NCBI GenBank assembly: GCA_050011875.1
Contig: JBEKIG010000019.1
Coordinates: 1-26,972 of the forward strand
Reading direction: 5' to 3'
Origin: Nitrososphaeria archaeon
Lineage (GTDB): Archaea; Thermoproteota; Nitrososphaeria; JACIWG01
Length of the DNA: 26,972 bases
Part shown: one piece after another, positions 421 to 20,249 of the stretch
Numbering within the stretch: the first letter of the stretch is position 1
How the letters are laid out: each line of letters begins with the position of its first letter
Program-made: the position numbers and the translations under genes
The notes under the pieces: generated by a model
Told to the model about the DNA's origin: nothing
Databases searched by the model: none
The model's input: only the letters and a program-made list of their open reading frames with translations

Positions 421-2346
421 ATGTATAGGATATTCGGACTCTTACTGATATTGGCGTTGGCCTTCTATCTGGCCTTTATCCCCCATATCGGCTATGCCTA
501 TCCGCTTCATGGGGACGAATGGATGCATATGACCTATGCTGAAACCATTGCCGGGACCGGCGCCATCACTTTTCCCGATCCCTTTACCGGGCTCACCGAG
601 ATAAACCTGGGGGATAACCTCTGGGTGGGCTATCACATACTCTGGGCCATCTTCCAGCAGGTCAGCGGCATAGACTGGATCATCCTTTTTAGGTACTTCC
701 CTTCCATTATATTCATGTTCACCGTCCTGGCTGTCTATATCTTAGCCTCCCGGCAGGGCTACGGTTTGGAGGCCGCCTTCTTTACCTGCCTCATACCTAC
801 CACAGGCGGTTTGCTTGGCCCCGCCTTCATGGTTCCCATGGCTCTGGGCATGCTCTTCATCCCGCTATCGATGTTTCTCGCCTTTAATATCAAGACGTGG
901 CCGTCCTATCTGTTGATATTTCTCTTTACCACTTACCTATTAGTATCCCACGCTACAACTGCCATAGTGCTGTGTATCATTCTCGCTCCTTACATCCTGT
1001 TAAATATCAAGGGGAACATCCGGCACGCTGCGGGAGTGTTGTCTGGCCTCGTTCTGCCATTTGCCCTGTCATTGCCCTGGACTTTCCAGATAGCGGTTCA
1101 GACCGCCCGGCAATTGCTGGTACCCCAGTACTTCTCGCCTTATATTGTGTTGCCTGATCTTCTTTGGAAGTACGGATTGATACCGGTCGCTTTCAGCTTC
1201 ATCGGTACCGTCATATTAGTAATAAAGGGCGGTAAGAAGAATCTTGGTTTGGTGCTCGGGCTGGCTTTGTTGCTCCTCATCATGCTTCTATTTATCAGGT
1301 TCCATTACGGTTTGTCCACAGTATATGAACGTGGTCTGACAGCTATGCTGTTAATGTTGAGCATTATAGCAGGCGCAGGATTGTTCTGGGTGAGGAAGCT
1401 AAAGCTACCTGCTGCGTTTCTTAAGAAATACAGATCAACAATTTTCACGGTCGCCGCGCCCGTCGTCTCAGTGTTGCTCTTGGCCGTCGTACTTGCCGTC
1501 GCCATCCCCACCAGGCTCAACGCATCTTTTTACCACATGATCGACGATCAAGACTACCGGGCATTCATATGGATAAAAGATAACGTCGCCGAGGATTACT
1601 CAACTGCCATGTTAGATCCGTGGAAAGCAACAGCCTTTAGCGCGGTCGCTATGAAAAATGCCCTGCATAGGATATGGATGAACCAGGAGCCGGTCGATGA
1701 TTCTATATACCAATTTCTGAACGGCGGAGGCAGCGGAACCACTTTTTTTCAAGACAATAAAGTATCCTTCGTCTATAACCGGCTGCCATGTAGTAGTCCC
1801 GATCTGATAGAAGTGAGCAATAATATTTTTCTCACCAATCCCAATATATCAACCAGTTTTGCTGTGAAAGCTGATCTGCAAAATGGCGGATTTGAGGCCG
1901 TCTATGGCACACCGCCTGCGTACTGGGGTCAATGGTTACAGAATTGCCAGCCATTATTCCTGTTTCCACAGCCGGGTAGAAACGGGGGTACCAGTGCAGC
2001 TATTAGAATATCAGAAATAGGATCATTTAACCCATGGCCTCAAGCTATCTGGACACAAAATGTGCCGGTTGAGGCAGGCAAATCATATATTATAGGGGGT
2101 TGGATAAAAACTGATAATATCACCGGTGAGAATGGAGCTTCAATTGTTCCTGATTGGAAAGGTCCCGGGAATGTTTTTCTCGGGGCGACCCCAATTATGA
2201 AACAACTCAAGGGCACTAACGACTGGATGTATTATCAGGGAAAAGTAATTGCTCCACTCGGGGCAACCGCGTGCACCGTTTGCTGCTCGATAAGCGGAAG
2301 TACAGGCATTGCGTGGTTTGATGATATGGTATTCAAAGAGCAATGA
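421..2346 (+). CDS. multi-pass membrane protein, putative GT-C-fold glycosyltransferase with C-terminal carbohydrate-binding-like domain
   Basis: About 10 or more hydrophobic segments. Acidic DE pair (HGDEW) in the first loop after TM1, as in GT-C enzymes. The C-terminal ~155 aa carry LQNGGFE...VEAGKSYIIGGWIKT...GTNDW...AWFDD, a CBM4/9-like pattern. Confidence 0.6.
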   Translation: MYRIFGLLLILALAFYLAFIPHIGYAYPLHGDEWMHMTYAETIAGTGAITFPDPFTGLTEINLGDNLWVGYHILWAIFQQVSGIDWIILFRYFPSIIFMFTVLAVYILASRQGYGLEAAFFTCLIPTTGGLLGPAFMVPMALGMLFIPLSMFLAFNIKTWPSYLLIFLFTTYLLVSHATTAIVLCIILAPYILLNIKGNIRHAAGVLSGLVLPFALSLPWTFQIAVQTARQLLVPQYFSPYIVLPDLLWKYGLIPVAFSFIGTVILVIKGGKKNLGLVLGLALLLLIMLLFIRFHYGLSTVYERGLTAMLLMLSIIAGAGLFWVRKLKLPAAFLKKYRSTIFTVAAPVVSVLLLAVVLAVAIPTRLNASFYHMIDDQDYRAFIWIKDNVAEDYSTAMLDPWKATAFSAVAMKNALHRIWMNQEPVDDSIYQFLNGGGSGTTFFQDNKVSFVYNRLPCSSPDLIEVSNNIFLTNPNISTSFAVKADLQNGGFEAVYGTPPAYWGQWLQNCQPLFLFPQPGRNGGTSAAIRISEIGSFNPWPQAIWTQNVPVEAGKSYIIGGWIKTDNITGENGASIVPDWKGPGNVFLGATPIMKQLKGTNDWMYYQGKVIAPLGATACTVCCSISGSTGIAWFDDMVFKEQ

Positions 2347-2653: not shown

Positions 2654-3193
2654 ATGAATATCGTTGCTTTTATTATTTTAATTCTTCTCTCGCAGCTTGG
2701 TTATTCTATTGGCGCTGTGGCAATGGCAAGCAAAAAAGAATTGAAACCGCAGATAATGGATTTGCTATTATTATTGGCTATTTGGGCCGGTGGGATATAT
2801 TTGGGACTCAGTCTTAATCTAAATAGATGGATCATGATTTTCATCTGGTTAGCTGCCAGTATTATAATAGGAATGTTGGCAGTAATGCCTCGAAAACTAA
2901 ATACAAAAGTGGTTCCAAATAAAGCTATTGGAACAGGTGAGAACAAAGATAATAAATCAATGAACTTGTTTAGAAGACTATGGAATAAATATAAAGAATT
3001 TTTTGCCAGAGTAGGAAGCTTCCAAACGGGAATAGACCTTGCATTGTTCTTTTTTACTGTAATTGTCCCGGCTGCATTAATTTTAAAGATGAGCGCTGAC
3101 CCATTAGGATTGAAATATCGTGATAATAAAACTCAATGGCTTGATAGGATAGAAACCAAAGTTGATCTAGATCAATCCAAGAGGCAGTTTTGA
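2654..3193 (+). CDS. SxtJ-like membrane protein
   Basis: The C-terminus LFFFTVIVPAALILKMSADPLGLK...QWLDR...SKRQF resembles SxtJ-family proteins that accompany carbamoyltransferases. Its stop overlaps the start of the next gene. Confidence 0.7.
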   Translation: MNIVAFIILILLSQLGYSIGAVAMASKKELKPQIMDLLLLLAIWAGGIYLGLSLNLNRWIMIFIWLAASIIIGMLAVMPRKLNTKVVPNKAIGTGENKDNKSMNLFRRLWNKYKEFFARVGSFQTGIDLALFFFTVIVPAALILKMSADPLGLKYRDNKTQWLDRIETKVDLDQSKRQF

Positions 3194-4971
3194 TGTATAT
3201 ACTGGGAATATCTTGTTTTTACCATGATGCCGCAGCCGCACTAATAAAAGACGGCATTTTAATGGCAGCCGCAGAGGAAGAGCGGTTCACCAGGATAAAA
3301 CATGACTTTGGCTTTCCGGAGAATGCAATTAAATTTTGTCTCGATTTTGCCAGCATACACGCAAATGATCTGGATTATGTTGTTTTTTATGAAAAACCCT
3401 TCCACAAGTTCGAACGTATTCTTCAGACAACGCTGCAGACATTCCCCAGGTCCTGGAGGGTTTTTGGGGAAGCAATGTCAATATGGATCACCGACAAGCT
3501 CTGGATGAAAAGTATTATTGGCGACAAAATAGGTATTGAATTCGATAAAATTCTCTTTACCGACCACCATGTCTCACATGCAGCCAGTGCCTTTTACTGT
3601 TCCCCCTTTGAAGAGGCGGCAATCCTAACTGTGGATGGTGTTGGTGAATGGGCGACGGCAACCATGGGAATAGGCAAAGGAACCGATATAAAACTGATTA
3701 AAGAAATGAGGTTTCCCCATTCATTAGGCCTGTTATACAGCGCCTTCACCGCTTTCCTGGGTTTCCAGGTTAATGAGGGCGAATACAAGGTTATGGGCAT
3801 GGCCCCCTATGGTAAACCTAGGTATATTGACAAGATATACGATAAGCTGGTCAAGGTAGCTGATGACGGGTCATTCTGGACAGATATGGATTATTTCTGC
3901 TACCACTATTCGGACAGCAAAACTTTCAATAGCAAATTCGTAGGTTTATTCGGAGAACCCAGGCCAACTGAGATGCATTTCTTTACCTCTACTACAAGGT
4001 TTCCATCCTATTTTGGCGAAAAACCCTCGAACTTCAGCGAACTTTGTCAGCAGAATGAGCATTACGCGGATATAGCAGCAAGTATTCAAACTGTGTCAGA
4101 AGAAATACTGCTCAAGATGGCAAATGCCCTGCACAAAGAAACGGGATTGAAAAAACTTTGCATTGCTGGTGGTGTAGGGTTAAATTCGGTAGCTAACGGG
4201 AGAATCTTGAGGGAAACTCCTTTTGAGGAACTCTTCATTCAACCCGCAGCAGGCGATAGCGGTGGGGCCTTAGGTGCTGCGCTGTATGCATACCACGCTC
4301 TTCTGGGAAAACCGAGATCATTCATAATGGAACATGCATATTTGGGAAAGGAGTATACCAACGGAGAAATAAAAGAATTCTTAGATAGTAATAATATCGG
4401 CAATGAGTATTTTTCAAATGAGGAGAAATTGCTTGATCGAGTGGTAGATGATCTCGTTGATGGAAAAGTCGTTGGCTGGTTTCAGGGCAGGTTCGAGTGG
4501 GGTCCGAGGGCACTGGGCAACCGGAGTATCCTGGCGGATCCGCGCAGTGAGGAAATGAAGGACCTGGTGAATGTGAAAATCAAATTCCGTGAACCCTTCC
4601 GGCCTTTTGCTCCCGTAATTCTTGAAGAGAAAACTGAGGACTTTTTTCAGGGTGGCGCGGACGCCACCAAACAATTTCCAGCCAGGTATATGCTTATGGT
4701 TTTACCGTTTAAAGAGAATAAGGCAGACAGCGTAAATGCCGTAAATCACATGGGAACAGGCAGGCTTCAGACCATTAGGAAAGAATGGAATCCACGATAC
4801 TATAATATAGTGAAGAAATTTGGCGAGGCCACCGGTGTGCCTGTACTATTAAATACATCTTTCAACCTGAGGGGTGAACCCATTGTTACCTCTCCGAGCA
4901 ACGCCTTCAATACCTTCAGTAAAAGTGGCATAGACGTCCTGGTTCTGGGAGATTATATGGTCCGAAAGTAA
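3190..4971 (+). CDS. O-carbamoyltransferase, CmcH/NodU (TobZ/SxtI-like) family
   Basis: Motifs ILGISCFYHDAAAAL, HHVSHAASAF, DGVGE, HSLGLLYS, GEYKVMGMAPYG, AGGVGLN, GPRALGNRSILADP, KFREPFRPFAP and NTSFNLRGEPIV. Confidence 0.95.
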   Translation: MMYILGISCFYHDAAAALIKDGILMAAAEEERFTRIKHDFGFPENAIKFCLDFASIHANDLDYVVFYEKPFHKFERILQTTLQTFPRSWRVFGEAMSIWITDKLWMKSIIGDKIGIEFDKILFTDHHVSHAASAFYCSPFEEAAILTVDGVGEWATATMGIGKGTDIKLIKEMRFPHSLGLLYSAFTAFLGFQVNEGEYKVMGMAPYGKPRYIDKIYDKLVKVADDGSFWTDMDYFCYHYSDSKTFNSKFVGLFGEPRPTEMHFFTSTTRFPSYFGEKPSNFSELCQQNEHYADIAASIQTVSEEILLKMANALHKETGLKKLCIAGGVGLNSVANGRILRETPFEELFIQPAAGDSGGALGAALYAYHALLGKPRSFIMEHAYLGKEYTNGEIKEFLDSNNIGNEYFSNEEKLLDRVVDDLVDGKVVGWFQGRFEWGPRALGNRSILADPRSEEMKDLVNVKIKFREPFRPFAPVILEEKTEDFFQGGADATKQFPARYMLMVLPFKENKADSVNAVNHMGTGRLQTIRKEWNPRYYNIVKKFGEATGVPVLLNTSFNLRGEPIVTSPSNAFNTFSKSGIDVLVLGDYMVRK

Positions 4972-4995
4972 GTTTTTATTTAAAAAGAGAAGAAG

Positions 4996-5175
4996 ATGAG
5001 CATATGGAAGAATTTTATATCTAAATCCGGGACATTCGGTGAGCTATTAACCTTCCTATGGCAAAGAAAACTCTGGTGGATGATCCCTATGATAGTCATG
5101 TTAGTACTATTTGGTTTATTATTCATTTTCGCCGCTGGTTCTCCGTTAGCCCCATTTATATATACGATTTTCTAA
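4996..5175 (+). CDS. DUF5989 / SxtK-like small membrane protein, 59 aa (absent from the ORF track)
   Basis: Manual translation: MSIWKNFISKSGTFGELLTFLWQRKLWWMIPMIVMLVLFGLLFIFAAGSPLAPFIYTIF. The RKxWWxxP and APFIYTxF pattern is typical of this family next to carbamoyltransferases. Confidence 0.9.
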   Translation: MSIWKNFISKSGTFGELLTFLWQRKLWWMIPMIVMLVLFGLLFIFAAGSPLAPFIYTIF

Positions 5176-5196
5176 AATCGATTCCATGATATTGCT

Positions 5197-6618
5197 ATGA
5201 GCGCCATGGACCAGAAGCAAAAGAAAAGGATCACCATCGTGGCTGCGCTGTGGATTCTCTTCGGCATTTCGGCAATGGTGCTTTTTAAGGGTTCAGCCTT
5301 CCTTCGCGTTCGTGAAGTAACTGTGGGGGCGCAGTATTCTGCCCAGATATTCACAATTTATAGTGTTCTTTTTATTCTGGGATACCTATTAGCATCAGGG
5401 TTACTGATATTGGTCACGATCTCCCGCCATCGCCGCGAAATGCTGGTTAAATGCCTGAGAAATCGATGGGTGCTAACTGTGGCCGTAATATACGTTTTCA
5501 TACTCCTCATTGTTGCACTTTTTTTACACTATTCAGTAGCAATTTTACTGTTCGTATGGACAGTTGGACTGTTTGCGACTCTTTTAATATTGGCTAAATC
5601 TGAAAAGCAGCTATTAAGCTGGATGGCACGTATTTTCGTTATGTTTCTCTCCCTACTAATAACCATTTATGCCGTAGAAGGCCTCATTAGAGTGAGCAAA
5701 GCTGACCTAGGATTTAACGGTCGCCAAGGTGGATATAGTTATACATGGGGACATAAGATAGTAAATAACAGCCTGGGATTTCGTGAAAAGGAATTTATTA
5801 TACCAAAGCCACAAAATGTATATCGTATAATGGTTCTCGGTGACTCATTCACACAGGGAGTTGGACTTGCAGAAGAGGAGCGGTATTCTGATCGATTAGA
5901 AGCTTTGCTTGCTACCGAGTTTCATGCTAAGAAAATCGAAGTTCTGAATTTTGGCGTTTGGGGTATTGCGACTGTCGATGAGAGGAATATTCTTATGAAA
6001 TATAAAGACATTGTCAAGCCAGATCTAATAATTGTGGGATTTTGCCAAAACGATACTCAGCCAAGGGCCGAGGACTATTCAATCGAGAAAAGCAAATATG
6101 ATATTTATTTTAACTTAATTGATAGTCTCTCATTATTCGGCCTTGAAGAAGTAAAAGGCATACTCCATTCCGGGTATCAGATTGTGCTGACTAAACTGGG
6201 TTATATACCCTCGTGGCAAGTAGCTTTGCAGAGAACATACGAGGAAGAGTCACCCGATTGGAAGCAATTTGTCGCAGCTCTACAGGATATAAAGACGATG
6301 TCAGATGATATTGGTCTTCCATCTCCTGTATTCGCCGTGCTTAACTCGGGATGGAGATATGATACACCGACTGACTACAATAATCCGGACGATGAACTCG
6401 CTCTTTATCTTAGATGGTATAATCAAGCCGAGAACGCGGCAAGAAAAATCGGATTTACAACCGTAAATTTCAAAGAGGAGTTTGCCAGGCAACTACCTAA
6501 TGAAATTATGGCAGTCAATAGATACGATAGACATCCGAACTCTAGAATGAATGAGATTTACGCGCAGAAGTTGTTTCAAGTTGTAGCACCTATAATAAGA
6601 AGCACTAATGAACGCTAA
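5197..6618 (+). CDS. membrane-anchored SGNH/GDSL hydrolase-family protein
   Basis: Several N-terminal TM helices, followed by SGNH blocks VLGDSFTQG (I), NFGVWG (II), GFCQND (III) and DRHPN (V, DxH). Confidence 0.88.
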   Translation: MSAMDQKQKKRITIVAALWILFGISAMVLFKGSAFLRVREVTVGAQYSAQIFTIYSVLFILGYLLASGLLILVTISRHRREMLVKCLRNRWVLTVAVIYVFILLIVALFLHYSVAILLFVWTVGLFATLLILAKSEKQLLSWMARIFVMFLSLLITIYAVEGLIRVSKADLGFNGRQGGYSYTWGHKIVNNSLGFREKEFIIPKPQNVYRIMVLGDSFTQGVGLAEEERYSDRLEALLATEFHAKKIEVLNFGVWGIATVDERNILMKYKDIVKPDLIIVGFCQNDTQPRAEDYSIEKSKYDIYFNLIDSLSLFGLEEVKGILHSGYQIVLTKLGYIPSWQVALQRTYEEESPDWKQFVAALQDIKTMSDDIGLPSPVFAVLNSGWRYDTPTDYNNPDDELALYLRWYNQAENAARKIGFTTVNFKEEFARQLPNEIMAVNRYDRHPNSRMNEIYAQKLFQVVAPIIRSTNER

Positions 6619-6715: not shown

Positions 6716-8176
6716 ATGGATGACCACAACGTAGCTGAGACAGGCCGTTTTGAAGTGCGCGCTTTCGGAAAAGATATCCTGGTATATATCTCGGGTAACG
6801 GGCTTCTTCTACTTTTCACGTTTTTACAGTCCCTGATCATTCCCAAATATCTTTCAGTAGCTGGCTACGGCTACTGGCAGCTTTTTAATCTTTATATCAC
6901 TTATGTGGGTATATTACACCTGGGCTTTCTGGATGGCCTGCTGGTGCACTGGGCCGGCAAAGACCTCAACCAGATAGGCGGAGAGATAAAACCAGCCATC
7001 AGGTTTCTCGTCCTGCAGCAATTAGCGGTTATTATTCCCCTGGGCTTAGTCACTTACTTGCTGCTGCAACCACCTTTCCAATTGATAGGATTAATGGTAT
7101 GCATATATGCCTTTATCTTTAACCTAGCGACTTTTTTCATTCTTACAACGCAGGCTATTAGGCAGTTCCGGTTGCTCACCGTGTTAAATGTGGGTAGAGG
7201 ATTTGCCTTCCTGGCTTTAGTCGTCCTTATTTTTGTTTCAGGCCACCTTGAATACCAATATGTTATTATTGCTGCGCTAGCAGCTTATCTGCTCTTTATG
7301 GTTGCTCTTGCTGTCAGTTACCGACGGTATCTGCAGGGCAATAACTCTTCTGCTCCATCACTGGCTTCCTATAGTAAAAAAAATATTAATATTGGTATAT
7401 TTATACTTCTCGGTAACTTCGTCTTCGTCATCTTCTGGTCCCTGGACCGCCTGCTGGTGAACTCCTCCTTTACTATTGAACAGTTTGCCGTTTATGCCTT
7501 TGCCCTAGCAATGGCCAATATTGTCTTCGTCTTTATCAGAGCGATAGCCGATGTCTCTTTCCCCCATTTATCAGCGGCGGCGCCGGAACAAAGGACCAGG
7601 GCTTATCAACTGGGTAAGCGCGTGCTGATTCTTTGCTGGGCTGTATCAATAGATGCCTACTTCCCGCTCGCCGCGTTGATTCAGTTTTATCTTCCACATT
7701 ACACTGGCAGCCTGCCCATTGTAAAGATCGTGCTGGGAACGATGGGCTTGAGCAGCCTTATACTAATTCTTCACGTTAATTACTACCGGTTATATCGAAA
7801 ACAGCGGCAATACTTCGGCATTGGGATAACCGCGCTGGCTCTTGCAGTCCTGCTGGTGCTGATAGCCATAAAAGTGATGGGCACTTTGGAAAGTGTGGCA
7901 ATGGCTATACTGATAAGTTCCTTCGTATGGTATATTATTAATGAGTTGAGCTTGAAAGCCGTGACAGGAGAAAGCAACGTGACGATATGGAAAAGCCTTA
8001 TAATTATGGGATGCTATTTCGCTTGCTTCTGGATTGCTTCATTCCTCAATTCCTGGTTTATAGCGCAAATGTTGATTTATGCTGGCTTTTTCCTTGTAAT
8101 TAGCTTTGGTTTTTTTCACACTGACTTGCGTGATCTATTACTTATGGTTCAAAGAAGCAGAAATAGACGTAATTGA
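6716..8176 (+). CDS. Wzx-like oligosaccharide flippase (MOP superfamily)
   Basis: 486 aa and highly hydrophobic. IIPKYLSVAGYGYWQLF, LDRLLV and FAVYAFA match the polysaccharide flippase pattern. Glycan-cluster context. Confidence 0.85.
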   Translation: MDDHNVAETGRFEVRAFGKDILVYISGNGLLLLFTFLQSLIIPKYLSVAGYGYWQLFNLYITYVGILHLGFLDGLLVHWAGKDLNQIGGEIKPAIRFLVLQQLAVIIPLGLVTYLLLQPPFQLIGLMVCIYAFIFNLATFFILTTQAIRQFRLLTVLNVGRGFAFLALVVLIFVSGHLEYQYVIIAALAAYLLFMVALAVSYRRYLQGNNSSAPSLASYSKKNINIGIFILLGNFVFVIFWSLDRLLVNSSFTIEQFAVYAFALAMANIVFVFIRAIADVSFPHLSAAAPEQRTRAYQLGKRVLILCWAVSIDAYFPLAALIQFYLPHYTGSLPIVKIVLGTMGLSSLILILHVNYYRLYRKQRQYFGIGITALALAVLLVLIAIKVMGTLESVAMAILISSFVWYIINELSLKAVTGESNVTIWKSLIIMGCYFACFWIASFLNSWFIAQMLIYAGFFLVISFGFFHTDLRDLLLMVQRSRNRRN

Positions 8177-8239: not shown

Positions 8240-9160
8240 ATGGAATATCCGAGAGTCTCTATCATAATCCTAAACTGGAATGGGCTGGAGGATACTATAG
8301 AGTGTCTTGAATCACTCAAAAAGATAACTTATCCAAATTACGAGGTCATTGTGGTCGATAATGCCTCCGCAAACAACGAAGCCCAGATACTAAGGGAAAA
8401 ATTCGGGGACTATATATATCTGATCCAGAATGATAGGAATTATGGCTTTGCTGAGGGGAATAATATTGCGATCAGACATGTTTTAAGCAAATCTGAGCTT
8501 AAATATGTTTTACTGCTCAATAATGATACAGTGGTAGCCCCGCAATTCTTAGATGAACTTGTGAAAGTGACCAAGCAAGACTGCTCAATCGGCATAGCCG
8601 GCCCGAAGATTTATTTCTATAATAATCCTAACGAAGCCCAGCATACCACGGCAAAAATAGACTTATATAGGGGCAAAGCCGGTTGGGCAGTTGTTAAAGA
8701 GGCGGATTCGGGGCAATTTGAGGACGTTCAGGATACAGCCTGGTGTGATGGTTCATGCTTTCTGGTCCGGCGCGAGGTAATACAAAGTATAGGGTTGATT
8801 GATGCCAGCTATTTTAAGTATTGGGAAGAGATTGATTATTGCCTGAGAGCAAGCAAGCAAGGATTTCGCATCGTTTGCTGTCCTCAAGCCAGGATATGGC
8901 ATAAAGGTTGGTTAAGAATGTGGGATAAAGGTTTCCCATCAATTAAGAGAGTTGAGGCTGTATATTACATGGAGAGGAACAGATTTTTATTTATGAGAAA
9001 GCATGCCGGCAAGCTTCAGATGGCCACATTTCTATTATACTATTTTACGTTCTCAGTTTGGATGATGAGCGGTCATTTATTGGTGCGTCGTAGAAGCCAG
9101 GAAAGCTTTATGTCTTTCCTAAGAGGGGTCAGAGATGGGTTTCAATTACTTGCCGCTTGA
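8240..9160 (+). CDS. glycosyltransferase family 2 (rhamnosyltransferase-like subgroup)
   Basis: VSIIILNWNG, VVDNAS, NYGFAEGNN, LLLNNDT, YWEEIDYCLRA and IWHK. AGGAG SD upstream. Confidence 0.92.
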   Translation: MEYPRVSIIILNWNGLEDTIECLESLKKITYPNYEVIVVDNASANNEAQILREKFGDYIYLIQNDRNYGFAEGNNIAIRHVLSKSELKYVLLLNNDTVVAPQFLDELVKVTKQDCSIGIAGPKIYFYNNPNEAQHTTAKIDLYRGKAGWAVVKEADSGQFEDVQDTAWCDGSCFLVRREVIQSIGLIDASYFKYWEEIDYCLRASKQGFRIVCCPQARIWHKGWLRMWDKGFPSIKRVEAVYYMERNRFLFMRKHAGKLQMATFLLYYFTFSVWMMSGHLLVRRRSQESFMSFLRGVRDGFQLLAA

Positions 9161-12598: not shown

Positions 12599-13582
12599 TT
12601 ATCCTGATTGGTATATCTTTTCAATCAATCTCATTACTTTTAAGGAATCAGCCGAGTTGGCTGTCGCTACCGGGGCATTCGTGTCTATGCATTGAATAAA
12701 TGTTCTTACCTCTTCTTCAAAGGAATTGTCAATCGAAAATGCAAACCTCTCTTCTTTTGTCCAGACTGCTTCCGGGGCCTCCGTTCGGTTTTCAGCTACA
12801 GACATCTCCTCTTTTCCATATGTCCCCGAGGGTGTTAACAAGCCGTTAATGACGATGTAACCCCGTTCCATGAACATTTCGAAGGAAAAAATGTGTCGCC
12901 ATTGTGTCATCGTGGAGTGAAGCGATGCGACCTGCCCCCGTGAATTCTTCAGGATTGCGAATACGTTATCCTCAATGTCCAGGTGCCAGTACAGATCCGA
13001 GCAAACAGCCTTTACTTCTTCGAACGAGTCACAGAACATTAAGAAAAGATCGAGCATGTGTATGCCCTGGTCCATCAGAATCCCGCCACCGGCATAGGCT
13101 TTCTTGGCGCGCCAGGTGTTGAAGAAATCTTTATCTACACTCTTTCCATAGCGCCCTCTCAGCCACAATATTTTCCCGTATTTACCAGAATCGACCAGCC
13201 TTTTCGCTTCAATAATGCTCTGGTGCTGCCGATGGTTGAAACCAACCATGAATTTACATCCGGGATTTCTCTTTTCAGCACCGATTATTTCCAAAATCTG
13301 GGCCGAATTGACGCCGGGCGGTTTCTCGCAGAAAACATGTTTCCCTGAATCCAGTCCACGAATTATTAAATCTTTGTTCAAATAGTTCGGGGTACAGACA
13401 AAAACAATATCAACATCATCATCGTTAAATATTTCATTGGGCTCTTTGGTAAATTTGAAGTTACCCTCTTGAGGCACGGAATCACATACATATTTCACTG
13501 AACAATCTCGGATAGAATTTATATTGTCCTTCCTTATTCTACCCATCTTTCCAAAGCCTAGAATACCTGCTTTATGATGCAT
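12599..13582 (-). CDS. Gfo/Idh/MocA family oxidoreductase
   Basis: GILGFGKMG Rossmann motif, HVFCEKP, VGFNHR and GGGILMDQGIHMLD. Start moved to ATG 13582, which has AGGAG upstream and overlaps the preceding gene's end. Confidence 0.9.
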   Translation of the reverse strand: MHHKAGILGFGKMGRIRKDNINSIRDCSVKYVCDSVPQEGNFKFTKEPNEIFNDDDVDIVFVCTPNYLNKDLIIRGLDSGKHVFCEKPPGVNSAQILEIIGAEKRNPGCKFMVGFNHRQHQSIIEAKRLVDSGKYGKILWLRGRYGKSVDKDFFNTWRAKKAYAGGGILMDQGIHMLDLFLMFCDSFEEVKAVCSDLYWHLDIEDNVFAILKNSRGQVASLHSTMTQWRHIFSFEMFMERGYIVINGLLTPSGTYGKEEMSVAENRTEAPEAVWTKEERFAFSIDNSFEEEVRTFIQCIDTNAPVATANSADSLKVMRLIEKIYQSG

Positions 13583-14645
13583 TTTGGATACTCCTATAAT
13601 CATTGAGATATTGTTTTAAGCTATCGTCTATCGGGAGCTTCCTTTTTAGCATTTCACCGGGACCTTTAGTTAATATAAAACTAAGATTTTCGTCAACATT
13701 CTTTTTATCCTTAGATAAAGCAACTAAAAATGGCTCCATTTGTTCAGATTCAAGGCGAATATCAGGGTAGTTCTTTTCCAATGCTTTTCTCATCTGTTGG
13801 TAAGATTTCTCTGGCAAAATCCCAAGCCTAAAGGATATATAATTTGCCATATCCATTCCTATTGTAACTGCCTGACCATGGCATACTTTATAGCTTGTGA
13901 TAGACTCGATAGCATGACCGAATGTGTGACCATAATTTAATATGTTTCGGTAATCCCTATCGAATTCATCCTTTTCTATTATTTTCTTCTTAATCGATAA
14001 ACTTCTAAGTATTAGCTCATTGAGTACAGGGCTTGAAGCTGACTCAGTATAATGAGACAGAATATATTCCAGGCTGTCTTCCCCATCTAAAAGGTGAACC
14101 TTAATTATTTCCCCTAAGCCTGATTTTATATCGATTAGTGATAAAGTTTTGAGAAAATTGAAATCTAATACTATATGGTCTGGTGGATAATAAGTTCCCA
14201 GCTGATTTTTAAACTCACCTACATTGATTGAAGTTTTACTTCCGATGCAGCTATCACTCTGTGATAATAGAGTAGTGGGATATAAAATCCATGCTATTCC
14301 CCGGAACAGTATTGATGATACGAATCCAGTTATATCCTGGATGATGCCTCCACCAATTGCCACTAGCCTGTCATCCCTTTTAATACTATTATTTATAAGG
14401 AGCTTTATGATAGTTTGAGCGTAGTCGAGGGTCTTATGCGACTCGCTTGCTTCAACTATCAGATGCTTCTGTTTTGCTAATATACTATGAAGCTTGTCCT
14501 TGTAGTGATAGAATACAGATTGATCAATTATATAAAAGGATTTTTCTGACGAGTTCTTAATCAAAGCCTCGGAGAAATCATCTACAAATATAATGGAATA
14601 GTCTTTTATATTAGACTTCACTTTTAGCTCTTTAAGTGTTGACAT
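13572..14645 (-). CDS. AroB-like sugar-phosphate cyclase (3-dehydroquinate synthase superfamily)
   Basis: GGGIIQDITGF, PTTLLSQSDSCIGSK, KNQLGTYYPP, GLGEIIK, NYGHTFGHAIES, HGQAV and DKK. Context argues against housekeeping aroB. The start (ATG 14645 or GTG 14654) is uncertain. Confidence 0.85.
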   Translation of the reverse strand: MSTLKELKVKSNIKDYSIIFVDDFSEALIKNSSEKSFYIIDQSVFYHYKDKLHSILAKQKHLIVEASESHKTLDYAQTIIKLLINNSIKRDDRLVAIGGGIIQDITGFVSSILFRGIAWILYPTTLLSQSDSCIGSKTSINVGEFKNQLGTYYPPDHIVLDFNFLKTLSLIDIKSGLGEIIKVHLLDGEDSLEYILSHYTESASSPVLNELILRSLSIKKKIIEKDEFDRDYRNILNYGHTFGHAIESITSYKVCHGQAVTIGMDMANYISFRLGILPEKSYQQMRKALEKNYPDIRLESEQMEPFLVALSKDKKNVDENLSFILTKGPGEMLKRKLPIDDSLKQYLNDYRSIQNAS

Positions 14646-15393
14646 AACCACCATCCACGATGATATTCTGCCCCGAAATGTAAGTATTCAGCTCACTTGA
14701 TAGGAATAATATGACCTTCGATATATCTTCAGGGGTAGCAAGTCTTCCCATCGGTATTCTCTTTACTAAATCTTTAATTTCGGTTTCGCTCAATGTTTTT
14801 TTTGTCAGATCGGTTAAAACAAAACCAGGGGAAACGCAATTCACCAATATATTATATGGTGCTAGGTCAATTGCGGCAGCTCTGGTCAGCCCAATTAATC
14901 CAGATTTAGTTGATGAATAAATTGACCTTTTCTCCCTGCTGATCACACCGAATATGGAAGCAATATTGATAATTTTGCCGTAGCCATTTTTTTTCATGAT
15001 TTGGCTTACCTCTCGACATATCACAAAGGGTGCCTTAAGGTTTACGTTAATAATATCACTCCAGTCGGTCAGCGAAGTGTCGTAGATATAATCAATTCTA
15101 TTGATCCCAGAATTATTAATACAGACGTCTATCTTACTAAACTTTCTCAACTCATGAGTCAAGTTAAACAGAGAGTCTTCACTTAAAAAATCCGCGCAGT
15201 AATATTTGATGTTCTTTCTATTGTTCCTTATCAGGTTCTCGTTTAATTCTTTTATTTCATCCGGTCTTGTACCTGTTAGAATAAGCTCGGCTCCTAGCTT
15301 CCCAAAATCATGCGCTAACTGCTTGCCAATCCCATGCGTTGCGCCGGTAATAAGAACCACTTTATTTTCAAAATGAATCTCCATTACGCTCAC
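14632..15393 (-). CDS. short-chain dehydrogenase/reductase (FabG-like SDR)
   Basis: ITGATHGIG, NNSG, YSSTK (YxxxK), VSPGFVLTD and VDGG. Confidence 0.92.
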   Translation of the reverse strand: MSVMEIHFENKVVLITGATHGIGKQLAHDFGKLGAELILTGTRPDEIKELNENLIRNNRKNIKYYCADFLSEDSLFNLTHELRKFSKIDVCINNSGINRIDYIYDTSLTDWSDIINVNLKAPFVICREVSQIMKKNGYGKIINIASIFGVISREKRSIYSSTKSGLIGLTRAAAIDLAPYNILVNCVSPGFVLTDLTKKTLSETEIKDLVKRIPMGRLATPEDISKVILFLSSELNTYISGQNIIVDGGYVNT

Positions 15394-15582
15394 TTCTCCA
15401 AAATCACATCTGGCATTTATGTCTCAACAATGTTTGATTCGGCTTTTTGCTAATATTAATTCTCCAATTCTCTCAGAAGTTCTTGAATATCAGTAACAGA
15501 ATTGGTTAAGAAATTAACAGTCCTACTAACTATACGTGAAGTCGTAAAAAATATTGATGTATCGAGTTGGAAAAGAATCTCC

Positions 15583-15759
15583 CTATAAGGTTCTGTCCAG
15601 AGCACGTCGCTCAGTCTCCCTATCCGAGGCTGTTTTCACATCCTTGTCGTGCCCAGATTGGACCAAGACACCGGTCCTGTGAGTTCCCAAATATGCACCG
15701 GCGGATAATGCAGCCTGCTCGGCTACGGCGAGATATTTATTAAGGTCCACATAATTCAC
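15583..15759 (-). pseudogene. truncated N-terminal fragment of an inositol monophosphatase (SuhB/CysQ)-family gene
   Basis: Manual translation (58 aa): MNYVDLNKYLAVAEQAALSAGAYLGTHRTGVLVQSGHDKDVKTASDRETERRALDRTL*. It matches the IMPase N-terminal A..AA..AG..L and D..T..D...E pattern. The catalytic EE and DPLDGT motifs are absent. Confidence 0.6.
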
Positions 15760-15780
15760 AAGGCGTTTCCTTGAAATAGG

Positions 15781-16413
15781 CTAGTCACGTTTTGTTTTTC
15801 CCAGTCTAAATGCCAGATATGTTGTAATCAGGTGAACAAGTATCAGGTGAATATCCTCAACAGGCCCGTATTCGCCTTTCAGAGTACTTACATGAACACA
15901 ATGATGGCAGGCGTTTTTCATAGAGCCTCCATCAAAGCCAACTATTCCAACTGTAATGCCATTTTTATTGTTGGCATAGTCAATTGCTCTAAGTAAATTG
16001 GGAGAATTTCCGCTTACGGATATGGCTACCAGGACATCCCCGGCGTTAAAAAGGGGCCGCAATTGCGCCATAAAGAGGTTCTCGTATCCCTCATCATTGC
16101 CAACCGCCGTTAGATAGGCGGAGTTGTCAACCAGGCTTAGTGCCTTGTATGGTTTCTTGCCATCCACGATAGTCCCGTAGGTCAAATCTTCAGCAAAATG
16201 CGAACAGGTGGCCGCGCTTCCGCCATTCCCGGCCATGAAGATGGTTTTTCCATTATCCCTGGCCTTTTCAAATACCCCAATCATTTTTTCGATTGCCGCA
16301 AGATCGAGAGTCCCACACAGTTCAGTCAGGTAAGACAGATACCCACGGGCGTAATCTTTTCCAGATTGCGAATTTGAATATATTTTTTCCAACCTATTCA
16401 TCTGTATCCTCAT
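15781..16413 (-). CDS. SIS-domain sugar isomerase, GmhA-like phosphoheptose isomerase
   Basis: FMAGNGGSAATCSHFAED, LTAVGND, ISVSGNSPN, GFDGG and VEDIH. Confidence 0.88.
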   Translation of the reverse strand: MRIQMNRLEKIYSNSQSGKDYARGYLSYLTELCGTLDLAAIEKMIGVFEKARDNGKTIFMAGNGGSAATCSHFAEDLTYGTIVDGKKPYKALSLVDNSAYLTAVGNDEGYENLFMAQLRPLFNAGDVLVAISVSGNSPNLLRAIDYANNKNGITVGIVGFDGGSMKNACHHCVHVSTLKGEYGPVEDIHLILVHLITTYLAFRLGKTKRD

Positions 16414-16452
16414 TAACTATATTCCCCAAAATCACTATTTTCGTTGCGGATG

Positions 16453-17403
16453 CTATTCACAACCATGGCTGAAATGAGGATTAAGAACACTTAACAGGTT
16501 CCTCACGGACTGCATTTCCATTTCCAATCTAGCCTCCCTGGCGTATGACCCGATATGCGGTGTAACCACAACATTGTCAAGCTGGCGTAGAGGTCCGGAA
16601 TATGGCTCTTTGCCGAAAACGTCAAGTGCAGCGCCGGACAGATGCCCGCTGGTTAACTGTAGATAAAGAGCTTCCTCATCAACAACATCCCCTCTGGAGA
16701 GGTTTAGCAGATATGCCCCTTTTCTCATAAGCTCCATTTCTTTTTTTCCAATCATGTGTTTATTAGCTTCACTATACGAAATATGCAGGCATAGGATTTC
16801 GCTGTCTTTTAGCAATTTTTTCATGTTAACTAATTGGACGTGGTTTGACTGGAGCCATTGAAAATCAGGTTCTATTTCAACCCCGGACACGTTTGTACCC
16901 AACCGCAACAATAGTTCGGCCACCTTCTTGCCGATACGTCCCAGGCCAACGATGCCAACTCTCTTACCTTGCAATAAGCTTCCGGTGTCCTTCCTCCAAT
17001 TACCTTTTCTGAGTTCTCTATCAAGAAAGGAAATTCGCCTCAGCAGATCGAAGATCAGCCCGACCGTAAGTTCAGCCACTGCCACTGTGGGGGCATCCGG
17101 CGTATTCAGCACAGCTATGCCTTTCCGTTTGGCAGCTTTCAAATCCACATTGTCCAGCCCGATTCCACAACGAGAAATTACTTTCAGGTCTTTAGCCTTT
17201 TCCAGAACCTGAGCTGTAAGTGGCTCTACCCCGGCAATCATTCCATCTGGTTTTATTTCTAGAAGAAGATTAATTACCTCATCTTCAGTTAACTTCCTGC
17301 CGTGCGGATTAAGGATAACCTCATAGCCAGCGTCTCGAAGAATACTGAGCGGTAGAGAGTCTTCCTTTCCAAAGGCGGACGTGGTGATTAATACCCTATG
17401 CAT
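16453..17403 (-). CDS. D-isomer-specific 2-hydroxyacid dehydrogenase (phosphoglycerate dehydrogenase-like)
   Basis: ISRCGIGLDNVD, GIVGLGRIG, NLSRGDVVDE, AALDVF and TPHIG. Start moved to ATG 17403 (MHRVLITT), which overlaps the aldolase end. Confidence 0.9.
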   Translation of the reverse strand: MHRVLITTSAFGKEDSLPLSILRDAGYEVILNPHGRKLTEDEVINLLLEIKPDGMIAGVEPLTAQVLEKAKDLKVISRCGIGLDNVDLKAAKRKGIAVLNTPDAPTVAVAELTVGLIFDLLRRISFLDRELRKGNWRKDTGSLLQGKRVGIVGLGRIGKKVAELLLRLGTNVSGVEIEPDFQWLQSNHVQLVNMKKLLKDSEILCLHISYSEANKHMIGKKEMELMRKGAYLLNLSRGDVVDEEALYLQLTSGHLSGAALDVFGKEPYSGPLRQLDNVVVTPHIGSYAREARLEMEMQSVRNLLSVLNPHFSHGCE

Positions 17404-18184
17404 GTTCCCACCCCAGCTTATTGCGAATAATGTTGATCCCGCCACGGCATGAATTTCCCAGGAATAGAAAATCCACGCTGAAAGCCAGCAAGCGATAACC
17501 CTGGCCAACTTTTTCTACCACCATGGCTGGATCATCTGGAACAACATGATAGCCTGCTACAGCGCCAAGCCGTCTTGCCGTGTTCTTCACCGAAGTTAAC
17601 GCCTTTACAACTGCCGGATGGTCGAACTGTCCGGGGACACCAAGGGAAGCGGAAAGGTCGTAGGGGCCGATGATAAAAGCGTCAACACCTTTTACCGACA
17701 AAATAGTTTCCAGATTCTCAACCGCCTCAATATGTTCTATCTGAACGATGACCACGCTCCCCGTTTCATTCCACTTTCTATATCCCTCAAAATCGACACC
17801 ATAGGCCTGGGCGCGGGCAAGGCCAACACCACGGAATCCCTGTGGCGGATACTTAACAGCCCCAACAGCTCGTTCAGCATCCTCCTTGTTATTGACCATC
17901 GGAACGATAACTCCATGTGCGCCGGCATCCATAACCCGTTTGATAATGGTAGCATCATTAACTCCCACCCGCACCAGCGGGATGCACCCGCTCAGTTCAA
18001 TTACCCGGATCAACTCCTGTGCCTGGTTAATATCGATGGCGCTGTGCTCCATATCCACTGTTAGCCAGTCAAATCCGGCCTTTGCCATTATCTCAGCGAT
18101 AGCAGGTTCCCCCATAGTAATCCACGATCCTATGGTTAGCTCTCTGTTTTGCAGTTTCGATTTCAGGTTCTTGATTTGATTCAT
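17396..18184 (-). CDS. HpcH/HpaI family class II pyruvate aldolase
   Basis: GFDWLTVDMEHS, GAHGVIVPMV, YPPQGFRGVG, VQIEH and IGPYDLSAS. Confidence 0.92.
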   Translation of the reverse strand: MNQIKNLKSKLQNRELTIGSWITMGEPAIAEIMAKAGFDWLTVDMEHSAIDINQAQELIRVIELSGCIPLVRVGVNDATIIKRVMDAGAHGVIVPMVNNKEDAERAVGAVKYPPQGFRGVGLARAQAYGVDFEGYRKWNETGSVVIVQIEHIEAVENLETILSVKGVDAFIIGPYDLSASLGVPGQFDHPAVVKALTSVKNTARRLGAVAGYHVVPDDPAMVVEKVGQGYRLLAFSVDFLFLGNSCRGGINIIRNKLGWEHA

Positions 18185-19578
18185 TTGTCTCTCACCGGTG
18201 CTGGTCGCTTAGTTAACGCTGGAATATAGGAAGGGGTTAAAGAATAATACCTTTTTCCCAAAGACTCCCCATATTCTACCAGTCCTTCGAAAAACGCGCA
18301 GTACTCTTCATATTGGTCTACGTATAAAGCATCTCTGAAAAATGAGGGGTGAGTATCAAAAATGGTCTGCATAAGATCGCCAAGTTGTGATGCCGAGCTG
18401 TGAGTCCAGTAATAATTTTCATCAGGCTTGCGACCATCGGCGCCAATGACGTAAATCTTCTCGCAGAAAGATGATACGATCGGTAACATAAACTGGGTCA
18501 ATATACTTGTTGATGCTGCCACATAAAACTTGCTCTCAGAAGGAAAGTTATATTTGTCTTTGTGCCCCGCTATTTTATCAGTCCACTCCATTTTGCCCGG
18601 CCTGCGCAACGCCATCCCCACAAGTTCCCATAGTGACATATCCCAGATATCCGGCACCGGCATTCCGATAATATAGCTTTCTAATTCAGGATAATGAGCC
18701 ATGAGCAATGGCACATTATAGTCAGGAACCATAATATAGCAGTGAAATTCTCTCACTGTATCAAGAACCATCCTGCGGAACTCCGCGGCGTAGCGACATG
18801 GACTAAAAAAAAATACAGGGTCGATAAAAGCAAGTAACTGGGGCTGTATATGGCGTAAAAGCGTTTTGTTCTTCACAATGGTGTTGCATACAACCTTGAA
18901 TCCCAAATCATAGTTAAATTCCTCCGCCCGTTCTATTGTGGGCCCAGTTCCGAATACGTATCCCTCCTTACAGCCGGCCGCAGTGCCAAGTAAAGATCGG
19001 TAATTTGCTTTTGATAGAGCGGAGAAACGCTCCTTCTGCCTGCTATCCAGAGTTCGAGAATACATCTTTCTGGCCATTGTACCTTCAACCGTACCGTAGA
19101 ATAATGGATCCACAACGCTTACAGTCGCTAAATGCCGTAAAATACGAGGCTCTAGCATGCTAGTCTTATTCCAGAGTAAGATGACGTCGGCTTGAGAGAG
19201 GTCAACAACTCGTTGATCAACAAGATGAATGTTGTTGGATCGCCCGATATAGTTGAACTGAGATGCCGGTGGGACCAGGGTTTTTAAGTCCGCACTCAAG
19301 AATTCTTTGGATACTGGAATTGAAACCTCCACTTGCGAAAATTCGGATTGAGGAAGATACCATGACGCCCGGTTTACTAAGTCAGCCAGAGTTGCTGCAT
19401 CGCTGACTACCGGATAGTAGATAACACATCTTACAACCTTAGCAGCGTCCCCACCCATTAACTTCAATAACTGTATGGCACCGCAATAAGCATAGGCTAC
19501 CGCTTTTCGCACATAGATTTTAGATCGATGCCTTGGGGCAGTTGCTATGCTCATTATCATAAGCCTCCCTCTGTACAC
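18181..19578 (-). CDS. putative CMP-sugar-dependent glycosyltransferase (Maf/DUF115- or sialyltransferase-like)
   Basis: The C-terminal half has YVFGTGPT, VCN, DP and IYVIGADG, the pattern of Maf/GT42-like domains. It lies directly after a cytidylyltransferase. Start uncertain. Confidence 0.55.
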   Translation of the reverse strand: MYRGRLMIMSIATAPRHRSKIYVRKAVAYAYCGAIQLLKLMGGDAAKVVRCVIYYPVVSDAATLADLVNRASWYLPQSEFSQVEVSIPVSKEFLSADLKTLVPPASQFNYIGRSNNIHLVDQRVVDLSQADVILLWNKTSMLEPRILRHLATVSVVDPLFYGTVEGTMARKMYSRTLDSRQKERFSALSKANYRSLLGTAAGCKEGYVFGTGPTIERAEEFNYDLGFKVVCNTIVKNKTLLRHIQPQLLAFIDPVFFFSPCRYAAEFRRMVLDTVREFHCYIMVPDYNVPLLMAHYPELESYIIGMPVPDIWDMSLWELVGMALRRPGKMEWTDKIAGHKDKYNFPSESKFYVAASTSILTQFMLPIVSSFCEKIYVIGADGRKPDENYYWTHSSASQLGDLMQTIFDTHPSFFRDALYVDQYEEYCAFFEGLVEYGESLGKRYYSLTPSYIPALTKRPAPVRDK

Positions 19579-20249
19579 TTTAACCTTTTGAGTAGCTCTG
19601 CCAGCTTAAAGTCCTGCTCATCATCTATATCTACAGCCTCAAACCTATCCATTTCAAACATCTGCGGCCTAAGTCCGATTCGCCTTTTCCCACTTTGATT
19701 GAAGGACGCCCTGGAAAAGATATAGATGTTGGAGTTTTCTTCGTAGATAGGTTGGAGATCCTGCGTTCGGAGCAGTTCTTTCAGATTGTGATTAACCGGC
19801 TGCCCGTCCTGCCAGTAGAGGCGAACCTGACGACGCGTTACAGAGAAAAGTGAATCATATGTATCTAACCTCGCGAAATAGCGTTCAATGGCCCTATTTA
19901 TGGTCGCCGTAGTTAATAGGGGATTTGTGCTGTGTGTCTGTAAAAAATACTCGCCCTCAATCTGCGAGATATCATAGGCAATGATACTATTCATAGATAC
20001 AAAATCCCCTCTGATTACCTCTGGCCGCTCTATGATGCTCACCCGGTCGAAATTCCGTAATGCATCTTCGGAAATTATCTGACTGTCTGTATCAATAATT
20101 ATATTGGTTATATATTTACTGCCCCTCAAACTCATGAGTATCCAATGAAACAAGGGACGTCCGCAGAAGGATCTCATATTTTTGCCAGGTATGCGCTCAC
20201 TGTGATCTTTCTGTGGCACTAATGCCGTTACCTTAAATTCCCTATCCAT
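19557..20249 (-). CDS. acylneuraminate cytidylyltransferase family protein (NeuA/KdsB-like)
   Basis: HSERIPGKNMR, IIDTDS, QTHSTNPL, YEENS and AVDIDDEQDF. Confidence 0.92.
   Translation of the reverse strand: MDREFKVTALVPQKDHSERIPGKNMRSFCGRPLFHWILMSLRGSKYITNIIIDTDSQIISEDALRNFDRVSIIERPEVIRGDFVSMNSIIAYDISQIEGEYFLQTHSTNPLLTTATINRAIERYFARLDTYDSLFSVTRRQVRLYWQDGQPVNHNLKELLRTQDLQPIYEENSNIYIFSRASFNQSGKRRIGLRPQMFEMDRFEAVDIDDEQDFKLAELLKRLKCTEGGL

Follow-up and report, generated by a model that had tools for sequence, protein, structure and literature searches.

A DUF5989 microprotein with a C-terminal tyrosine tail resembling those of DltX and MBOAT acyl shuttles, encoded in a carbamoyltransferase operon of a Nitrososphaeria assembly

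The stretch of DNA analysed here (the window) comprises 26,972 nucleotides (nt) of contig JBEKIG010000019.1 in the Nitrososphaeria archaeon assembly GCA_050011875.1. At its centre of interest lies a gene for a microprotein of the Pfam family DUF5989, which we call K, and which is found in a run of four genes encoding, in this order, an SxtJ-like membrane protein (J), an O-carbamoyltransferase, K, and an SGNH/GDSL protein (Table 1). Only 24 nt separate the K gene from the carbamoyltransferase stop codon and 21 nt from the SGNH start, and the stop of J overlaps the start of the carbamoyltransferase gene; because of this tight spacing and overlap, the four genes fit a single operon. The C-terminus of K bears a likeness to the tyrosine-bearing tails of the acyl shuttle DltX and of MBOAT proteins that is real, widespread and apparently undescribed, and this likeness raises the possibility, weighed below, that a carbamoyl group is passed on here in a comparable manner.

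Table 1. Features of the window discussed in the text (coordinates are positions of the window; aa, amino acids).
Feature	Position	Strand	Basis or remark
DUF5989 microprotein K (SxtK-like), 59 aa	4996..5175	+	ORF translation and Pfam
Juxtamembrane motif of K, FLWQRKLWWMIP, residues 20-31	5053..5088	+	Basic aromatic collar, predicted cytoplasmic side of helix
Single predicted transmembrane helix of K, ~W27 to A46, ~20 residues	5074..5133	+	Read from sequence; hydrophobic columns -32 to -14
Uncharged C-terminal tail of K, GSPLAPFIYTIF, 12-13 residues	5137..5172	+	Family column counts
Membrane protein J, SxtJ-like, 179 aa	2654..3193	+	Local profile iteration, alignment
O-carbamoyltransferase, NodU/CmcH/TobZ type, 593 aa	3190..4971	+	Pfam, PDB sequence matches
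SGNH/GDSL protein, 473 aa	5197..6618	+	Pfam, alignment, AlphaFold2 model
Polytopic membrane protein, 641 aa, no Pfam match	421..2346	+	
Polytopic membrane protein, 486 aa, no Pfam match; possibly flippase or polymerase	6716..8176	+	
Family-2 glycosyltransferase	8240..9160	+	Glycos_transf_2, E 1.9e-22
DUF2206 membrane protein, 763 aa	9176..11467	-	PF09971, E 2.5e-55

An earlier note on this DNA, made from the letters themselves, had described a single-helix protein of 59 residues ending in FIYTIF directly before the stop codon. This description is borne out by the open reading frame (ORF), which is intact from the ATG at 4996 to the TAA at 5173-5175 (59 codons plus stop) and whose translation ends in GSPLAPFIYTIF-COOH, with PFIYTIF as the last seven residues. 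The hexapeptide FIYTIF is encoded by positions 5155-5172 and its tyrosine, Tyr56, by codon 5161-5163. K matches DUF5989 (PF19451) with 68.7 bits, the cut-off being 27 (E 4.5e-19; profile positions 2-49 of 49), and the match was recovered again by a profile search of the whole genome. Its N-terminal third carries Lys and Arg, and in the collar that borders the helix K25, W28 and P31 are invariant across the alignment of K relatives, the collar columns as a whole being high in information. Because the N-terminal flank is net positive in 244 of 291 family sequences and the tail is free of Lys and Arg in 279 of the 291, K is predicted to be oriented with its N-terminus inside and its C-terminus outside, like DltX.

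The family is large: a search with the K profile through 1.84 billion cluster representatives yielded 5,254 with E<=0.001, DUF5989 occurs above the Pfam cut-off in 74 of 401 sampled cyanobacterial genomes, and K loci span many phyla. Against PDB sequences the same profile gave one chance match only (E 0.73) and no DltX chain at E<=10, and a search of the ESM Atlas with K returned nothing beyond K's own family. The family name DUF5989 is absent from the literature searched (subscription-only papers lay outside that search), which likewise holds no publication joining an acyl shuttle and a carbamoyltransferase and, searched by title and abstract with supplementary files also outside its scope, none on SGNH-linked polysaccharide carbamoylation.

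The earlier note had named a lack of conservation of the tyrosine at position -4 from the C-terminus as grounds for refuting its proposal, and the proposal survives this check. The residue is kept in 291 of 298 pooled K-family sequences, every retrieval of which relied on a profile or pattern containing the tail; the seven exceptions are two sequences that are one residue longer, three with long C-terminal extensions, one with Ser for Tyr, and one that is truncated. Among 102 near relatives from an index of 5.8 billion proteins, Tyr -4 occurs in 101 and an F.Y..F end in 99. In the representatives inspected, which are the best 150 of the 5,254, the corresponding counts are 145 and 127, and Tyr -4 is kept in 45 of 46 K ORFs from fetched cyanobacterial loci, the exception being a truncated copy. 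Information content in the K family peaks at columns -7 to -4 (P, F, I, Y; 3.9-4.3 bits), as counted on 291 sequences picked for Tyr -4, so that the Y column is invariant by construction. The multi-phylum loci described below were also collected with the tail as one of two search patterns. In the 2.64-Mb genome to which the window belongs, an F.Y..F end occurs in 4 of the 13,133 ORFs that are 40 aa or longer, where 0.94 would be expected from composition, and the other three are short and have no hydrophobic helix evident by eye. The chance that a random six-residue end fits F.Y..F is ~7e-5, and the tail motif of K is not due to chance.

According to the accessible portions of the papers cited here and below, D-alanine is carried in DltX on the invariant Tyr of a C-terminal FXYXXF "acyl shuttle" motif, and PatA auto-acetylates an equivalent residue, Tyr445, from which the acetyl group passes to the catalytic Ser of an SGNH partner (PMC12148441); the premise of the earlier note that such tails are established acyl shuttles is, therefore, in print for both proteins. 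A published DltX of 48 aa has a basic N-terminal end of 11 residues, a helix of 22 residues and an outer tail of 15 residues ending in TFIYNEF (PMC5541007). A DltX peptide ending in KFIYNEF binds DltD with a dissociation constant (Kd) of 2.4 µM, an AlphaFold3 model sets the last four residues of the peptide inside the catalytic pocket of DltD, and the tail peptide alone binds both DltD and DltE at micromolar affinity (PMC13653941). Our comparison, which drew on two published DltX tails and the Pfam profile, reveals that K resembles DltX in its build (~50-60 aa, a basic cytoplasmic N-terminal end, one membrane helix and a short outer tail, the topology of K being predicted), in its C-terminal F-I-Y-x-x-F (FIYNEF in DltX, FIYTIF in K), and in a gene that adjoins that of a membrane-anchored SGNH protein. 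The two differ at positions -3 and -2, which are N and E in DltX but T/S and L/I in K. Furthermore, no DltB-type MBOAT, DltA or DltC was found with K, its linked cytoplasmic enzyme is instead an ATP-dependent carbamoyltransferase, and its hosts are many Gram-negative phyla, cyanobacteria and one archaeal assembly.

The MBOAT proteins (PatA, AlgI and relatives) share with K the P-F-I-Y-x-x-F-COOH end past the last membrane helix and the SGNH partner, but their motif is fused to a multi-helix enzyme that forms a transmembrane funnel, whereas K is a free microprotein. In 26 of 30 fetched cyanobacterial MBOAT loci we found an ORF of at least 300 aa ending in [FY][IL]YF.[FY], the commonest tails among these 26 being PFIYFRF (9), EFLYFQF (6) and PYIYFDF (4). 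The consensus tail of the K family, PFIY[TS][LI]F-COOH, matches both the published DltX ends and the fetched MBOAT ends, in agreement with the resemblance to DltX/AlgI-type tails that the earlier note had proposed. The form PFIYT[LI]F is identical to the commonest MBOAT tail at Pro -7, Phe -6, Ile -5, Tyr -4 and Phe -1, and Pro at -7 is shared with K by 10 of the 26 motif-bearing MBOAT tails (PFIYFRF 9, PFIYFNF 1). When the K family was aligned by hhalign with the last 60 residues of the MBOAT proteins, the probability was 73% (E 3.1e-5), with collar, helix and tail in register. MBOAT PF03062 has 0 matches in the genome of the window (97% complete) and in four other K genomes, and no MBOAT was found in two further K-positive cyanobacterial genomes. 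Because no MBOAT protein was found in these K genomes, K is not a DltX serving some distant MBOAT. The DltX profile also has no match in the genome of the window (the controls B. subtilis and L. lactis do match), and it was found above cut-off in 0 of 301 genomes of one phylum that were scanned as a sequence source.

The SGNH protein of the window consists of about five N-terminal helices (residues 6-166) followed by the SGNH domain, in which blocks I, II, III and V are present and Ser217 (in GDSFT), Asn285, Asp444 and His446 form the predicted catalytic set; it matches Lipase_GDSL_2 with 37.6 bits and Lipase_GDSL with 30.1 bits. Across 33 aligned K-adjacent SGNH proteins His446 is invariant, and Gly215, Ser217, Asn285 and Glu161 are conserved in at least 90%; 31 of the 33 match Lipase_GDSL_2 and 10 match the AlgX acetyltransferase SGNH domain. 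Glu161 (encoded by 5677-5679) sits at the outer end of the anchor helix, and it may contact K or take part in catalysis at the membrane surface. Most of the 54 SGNH ORFs in K loci are 340-450 aa long with one N-terminal anchor helix, which is the build of DltD, and 24 of the 54 lie within 150 nt of K on the same strand. Because the anchors come after basic N-termini, as judged by eye from the alignment, the catalytic domain is predicted to be outside, on the same side as the tail of K. An AlphaFold2 model of the window's protein has a mean pLDDT of 74.6, with most 10-residue blocks of the core above 90. A Foldseek search with this model returned generic esterases and thioesterases such as TesA and Axe2 (E about 2e-7), and no DltD, PatB or AlgX signal. 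The predicted complex of K with SGNH residues 130-473, both with alignments, gave ipSAE values of 0.13 and 0.10, below the mark of 0.32, and counts neither for nor against contact.

The carbamoyltransferase matches Carbam_trans_N (E 3.4e-88) and Carbam_trans_C (E 7.1e-67), and its nearest solved structures are GdmN (E 6e-90), the novobiocin carbamoyltransferase NovN, and TobZ (E 1e-78). Because no transmembrane segment is present, the enzyme is predicted to be soluble and cytoplasmic. Members of this family transfer carbamoyl to hydroxyl groups through carbamoyl-AMP. TobZ, GdmN and NovN, to whose family the window's enzyme belongs over its full length (E 1e-78 to 6e-90), work alone on soluble antibiotics, whereas the window's enzyme appears to be wired to two small membrane proteins and an SGNH protein predicted to face outward.

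J has three helices in its N-terminal part, followed by a core of the SxtJ type that is composed of a basic, amphipathic helix, a hydrophobic stretch of 18 residues around a central Pro, and a charged tail that terminates in RQF-COOH. Against Pfam at E<=0.01 it gave only a sub-threshold DUF5363 match, and it was placed in the SxtJ family solely through local iteration and alignment: a phmmer/hmmsearch iteration that started from the window's J collected 62 ORFs in 61 of 80 loci, window included, and members of this set score 36.3, 42.4 and 60.6 bits against Pfam SxtJ PF19588 (cut-off 24.4). Two further features of SxtJ-type proteins were seen in the window's J and in loci L001-L127. The extreme end [RK]-Q-[FYW]-COOH is conserved after a DPLxLK...W tail, and the 18-residue segment, which has Pro at its centre and is flanked on either side by basic residues, may re-enter the membrane instead of spanning it.

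The recurrence of the module was surveyed by local profile iteration in 79 loci from many phyla together with the window (80 loci, many of them on short contigs). A carbamoyltransferase is encoded in 68 of these loci, a J-type protein in 61 and an SGNH protein in 43. When the count is confined to the 43 K genes flanked by at least 4 kilobases (kb) on both sides, a carbamoyltransferase lies within 4 kb in 40 cases, J in 27 and an SGNH gene in 24. Cyanobacterial loci often have the genes arranged as carbamoyltransferase, J, K, SGNH. Other recurrent neighbours of K are GT4, GT2, Wzy_C, Wzz/kinase, GDP-mannose dehydratase and carbamoyl-phosphate synthase, genes for the last being adjacent as a four-member cluster over three loci and in L121; GT2, GT4, Wzy_C and Wzz belong to surface-glycan synthesis. 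Four loci (L001, L040, L075, L077) contain extra K-SGNH pairs beside a single carbamoyltransferase, which look as if every SGNH enzyme owned a K. A search for SGNH proteins in five genomes without an adjacent one gave several weak matches in each, and the positive control did no better.

In eight picocyanobacterium-type 12-kb loci (L112-L118, L120) the gene of a 590-aa TPR protein overlaps or abuts that of K and is followed by J and the carbamoyltransferase; the K tails of these loci end in FIYTII or FIYTVI. The TPR proteins have no signal peptide and no membrane helix, because of which they cannot meet an outer K tail, and they were rejected as its receptor. A PDZ-type receptor was likewise rejected, as no PDZ gene recurs near K.

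Several natural fusions were encountered. A protein of 747 aa (L127, 2627-4867) joins the carbamoyltransferase to J, with all three domains above the Pfam cut-offs, and this places the N-terminal end of J in the cytoplasm. Another, of 206 aa (L122, 1552-2169), joins J to K, and in P0155, P0191 and P0233 (203-212 aa) a four-helix N-terminal domain is fused ahead of K. P0171 is an apparent K front joined to a J-type tail. Longer fused forms of K amounted to 2 weak matches among 8,000 scored candidates. Two presumed carbamoyltransferase-K fusions were rejected because both look like frameshift read-through: in L037 (658 aa) the C-domain lies in another frame and in P0114 the normal end of the enzyme is lost.

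The same four gene families recur in saxitoxin biosynthesis. The accessible text of the cluster descriptions lists as neighbours sxtI (1839 bp, carbamoylation), sxtJ (405 bp) and sxtK (165 bp), both of unknown function there, and sxtL (1281 bp, GDSL lipase), SxtL being assigned to "decarbamoylation" on homology grounds (PMC2679770, PMC2885083). A table in a Mar Drugs review gives sxtJ and sxtK as "regulatory" (PMC7073992), and the sxt literature of 2009-2026, as far as its accessible portions go, treats the two as unknown, "regulatory", or hypothesised partners of sxtI. One of our loci (L126, 1188-7432) encodes a Rieske protein of 339 aa, a MatE protein of 485 aa, a carbamoyltransferase of 612 aa, an SxtJ protein of 134 aa (60.6 bits), a DUF5989 protein of 54 aa (77.4 bits) that ends in FIYTLF, and a GDSL protein. 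The first five lengths equal those of published sxtH, sxtM, sxtI, sxtJ and sxtK exactly, and the GDSL ORF is 446 aa from its earliest start versus 426 aa for published sxtL; the locus is probably part of a saxitoxin cluster. Because its gene order and lengths match sxt, we infer that SxtK belongs to DUF5989 and that a module of general use was taken over by the toxin cluster. The window shares all four families with sxtI-J-K-L and differs in that its set lies in a glycan island and follows the order J, carbamoyltransferase, K, SGNH.

The reading that we favour, tentatively and at slightly less than an even chance, is that K represents a new form of the tyrosine-shuttle principle, in which a carbamoyl group on Tyr56 is donated to Ser217 of the SGNH protein. 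It is favoured because K alone in this module bears the catalytic motif of the MBOAT-SGNH and Dlt systems; the logic of the operon, with an ATP-using activator, small membrane proteins and a serine enzyme predicted to face outward, also appears to be that of these systems. By analogy with DltB-DltX-DltD and PatA-PatB, K would serve, through its tyrosine, as the shuttle in a machine of four parts that works without an MBOAT and O-carbamoylates a glycan of the cell surface. The cytoplasmic TobZ-type enzyme would convert carbamoyl phosphate and ATP to carbamoyl-AMP and, held at the membrane by J and by the basic amphipathic N-terminus of K, would transfer the carbamoyl group to the hydroxyl of Tyr56. 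The uncharged tail of K would then swing to the SGNH domain, where Ser217 would accept the group and pass it to a sugar hydroxyl. The earlier note had likewise proposed that this Tyr is transiently carbamoylated and donates to the adjacent SGNH protein, and this proposal stands in part only. The conserved matching tail and an SGNH domain predicted on the same side support it, and a soluble enzyme and the lack of an MBOAT conduit do not. The adjacency of the SGNH partner, evident in the window with its gap of 21 nt, is found within 4 kb at just 24 of the 43 well-flanked loci.

A number of results weigh against such a carbamoyl-Tyr56 shuttle. The carbamoyltransferase is predicted to be cytoplasmic while Tyr56 is predicted to be outside, and the model gives no path by which the group or the tail would cross the bilayer for loading of Tyr56 without an MBOAT funnel; moreover, no polytopic conduit (MBOAT, AT3) is found among the recurrent neighbour families of K. 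Carbamoyl-serine enzymes are usually slow in turnover and unsubstituted aryl carbamates decay readily. The SGNH gene is missing within 4 kb of ~44% of the well-flanked K genes, adjoins K in 19 of 30 short cyanobacterial loci, and is lacking from the eight picocyanobacterium-type loci. The J-K fusion L122 would put the tail of K inside if the third hydrophobic segment of J truly spans the membrane, and it fits an outer tail solely if this segment is re-entrant. Fold similarity, for which generic esterases are the nearest matches, cannot separate a transferase from a hydrolase. The likeness of the tails is also motif-deep: because the hhalign probability collapses to 1.3% without the last 8 MBOAT residues, we hold the likeness to be one of motif and architecture, from which common descent does not appear demonstrable. 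At E<=10 the DltX profile (PF12459) matched neither K nor its last 30 residues, nor either of two cyanobacterial K proteins; K would work like DltX yet is, by profile, no member of the DltX family.

In a rival reading K is a non-covalent adaptor whose N-terminal helix and membrane span tether the carbamoyltransferase, with J, at the membrane, its tail being a docking peptide and carbamoyl-Tyr never being formed. A lipid-linked sugar would then be carbamoylated on the cytoplasmic face, with the tail recruiting the SGNH protein or another outer partner, and no transmembrane chemistry would be required. Consistent with this, the carbamoyltransferase (40 of 43) and J (27 of 43) accompany K within 4 kb more often than the SGNH protein does (24 of 43), the carbamoyltransferase and J are naturally fused in L127, and such tails do dock, since the DltX tail peptide itself binds DltD and DltE (PMC13653941). 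However, a docking peptide seldom demands that a single Tyr be kept at one set distance from the C-terminus in many phyla, and an adaptor leaves without reason both the equality of the K motif with the catalytic motif of MBOAT proteins, including the Pro in 10 of 26 tails, and the presence of an outward-facing serine enzyme in a carbamoyltransferase operon; we consider it rather unlikely. Convergence, with a function unrelated to shuttling, would have the tail pack at the membrane or in a J/K oligomer and K act as an assembly or stability factor. That homology stops at the tail (hhalign 1.3%) and that no DltX profile match was obtained would fit this, as would the "regulatory" entry for sxtJ and sxtK (PMC7073992) and the retention of FIYTII in picocyanobacterium-type operons despite the lack of an SGNH gene. 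It is nevertheless unlikely, given that F.Y..F has a chance probability of ~7e-5 and that Pro -7, Ile -5, the extreme C-terminal placement, the build of the protein and the SGNH neighbour also match, independent of the hexapeptide pattern. Finally, the SGNH protein could be a hydrolase (decarbamoylase or deacylase) that edits the modification outside, the tail of K being a regulator, a pseudo-substrate or unrelated. The assignment of SxtL to decarbamoylation by homology (PMC2679770, PMC2885083) and the structural neighbours, which are esterases and thioesterases such as TesA and Axe2, point in this direction. The SxtL assignment is, however, one of homology, for which no experiment is cited in the accessible text (PMC2679770, PMC2885083, PMC7073992), and 10 of the 33 K-adjacent SGNH proteins match the AlgX-type transferase domain. 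As a biosynthetic operon that adds a group and at once removes it would be uneconomical, and the invariant Tyr would be left without reason, a hydrolase seems very unlikely to us.

In its widest form the shuttle reading holds that the module is an unrecognised MBOAT-free transmembrane group-transfer machine that shuttles carbamoyl, that surface glycans are carbamoylated outside the cytoplasm with the SGNH protein as the final transferase, and that SxtL is no decarbamoylase; this we regard as possible but doubtful. The tyrosine acyl shuttle has so far been bound to MBOAT proteins. A free shuttle microprotein combined with an ATP-dependent carbamoyltransferase would, if true, mean that the shuttle principle is modular and extends to a non-acyl group, and it would explain how surface polysaccharides could be carbamoylated after export. 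SxtJ, SxtK and SxtL would in that case act together in a single carbamoylation device, which would give sxtJ and sxtK a role, and with 5,254 representatives at E<=0.001 in many phyla the family concerned is not a small one.

The assembly is archaeal because its genome encodes ribosomal protein S4e, the profile of which matches just the four archaeal controls. DUF5989 was found in 0 of 40 relatives, no DNA synteny of the window was found with five relatives, and the nearest K loci are bacterial. It is possible that the module was acquired horizontally or that the contig was mis-binned (the contamination estimate of the assembly is 4.8%). The stretch 2654-6618 was found verbatim in 20 public DNA runs from 2014-2020, all but one (a coded organism) being labelled as soil, peat or wetland metagenomes, and some of these runs may be its source; no RNA run containing it is listed among the public sequencing runs.

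Because the remaining genes of the 27-kb window are for glycosyltransferases, enzymes of sugar-nucleotide metabolism and large membrane proteins, its setting is, to judge by gene content, a surface-glycan synthesis island. On the minus strand, positions 12599-20249 hold genes for a 3-dehydroquinate-synthase-like enzyme, an SDR, a SIS-domain protein, a 2-hydroxyacid dehydrogenase, an HpcH-type aldolase and a CTP_transf_3 cytidylyltransferase, and this run suggests that an unusual sugar acid, activated with CMP, is made for this glycan. In one of the other loci (L030, 8207-10222) a gene for a GDP-mannose dehydratase/epimerase is split by an intein with a LAGLIDADG domain.

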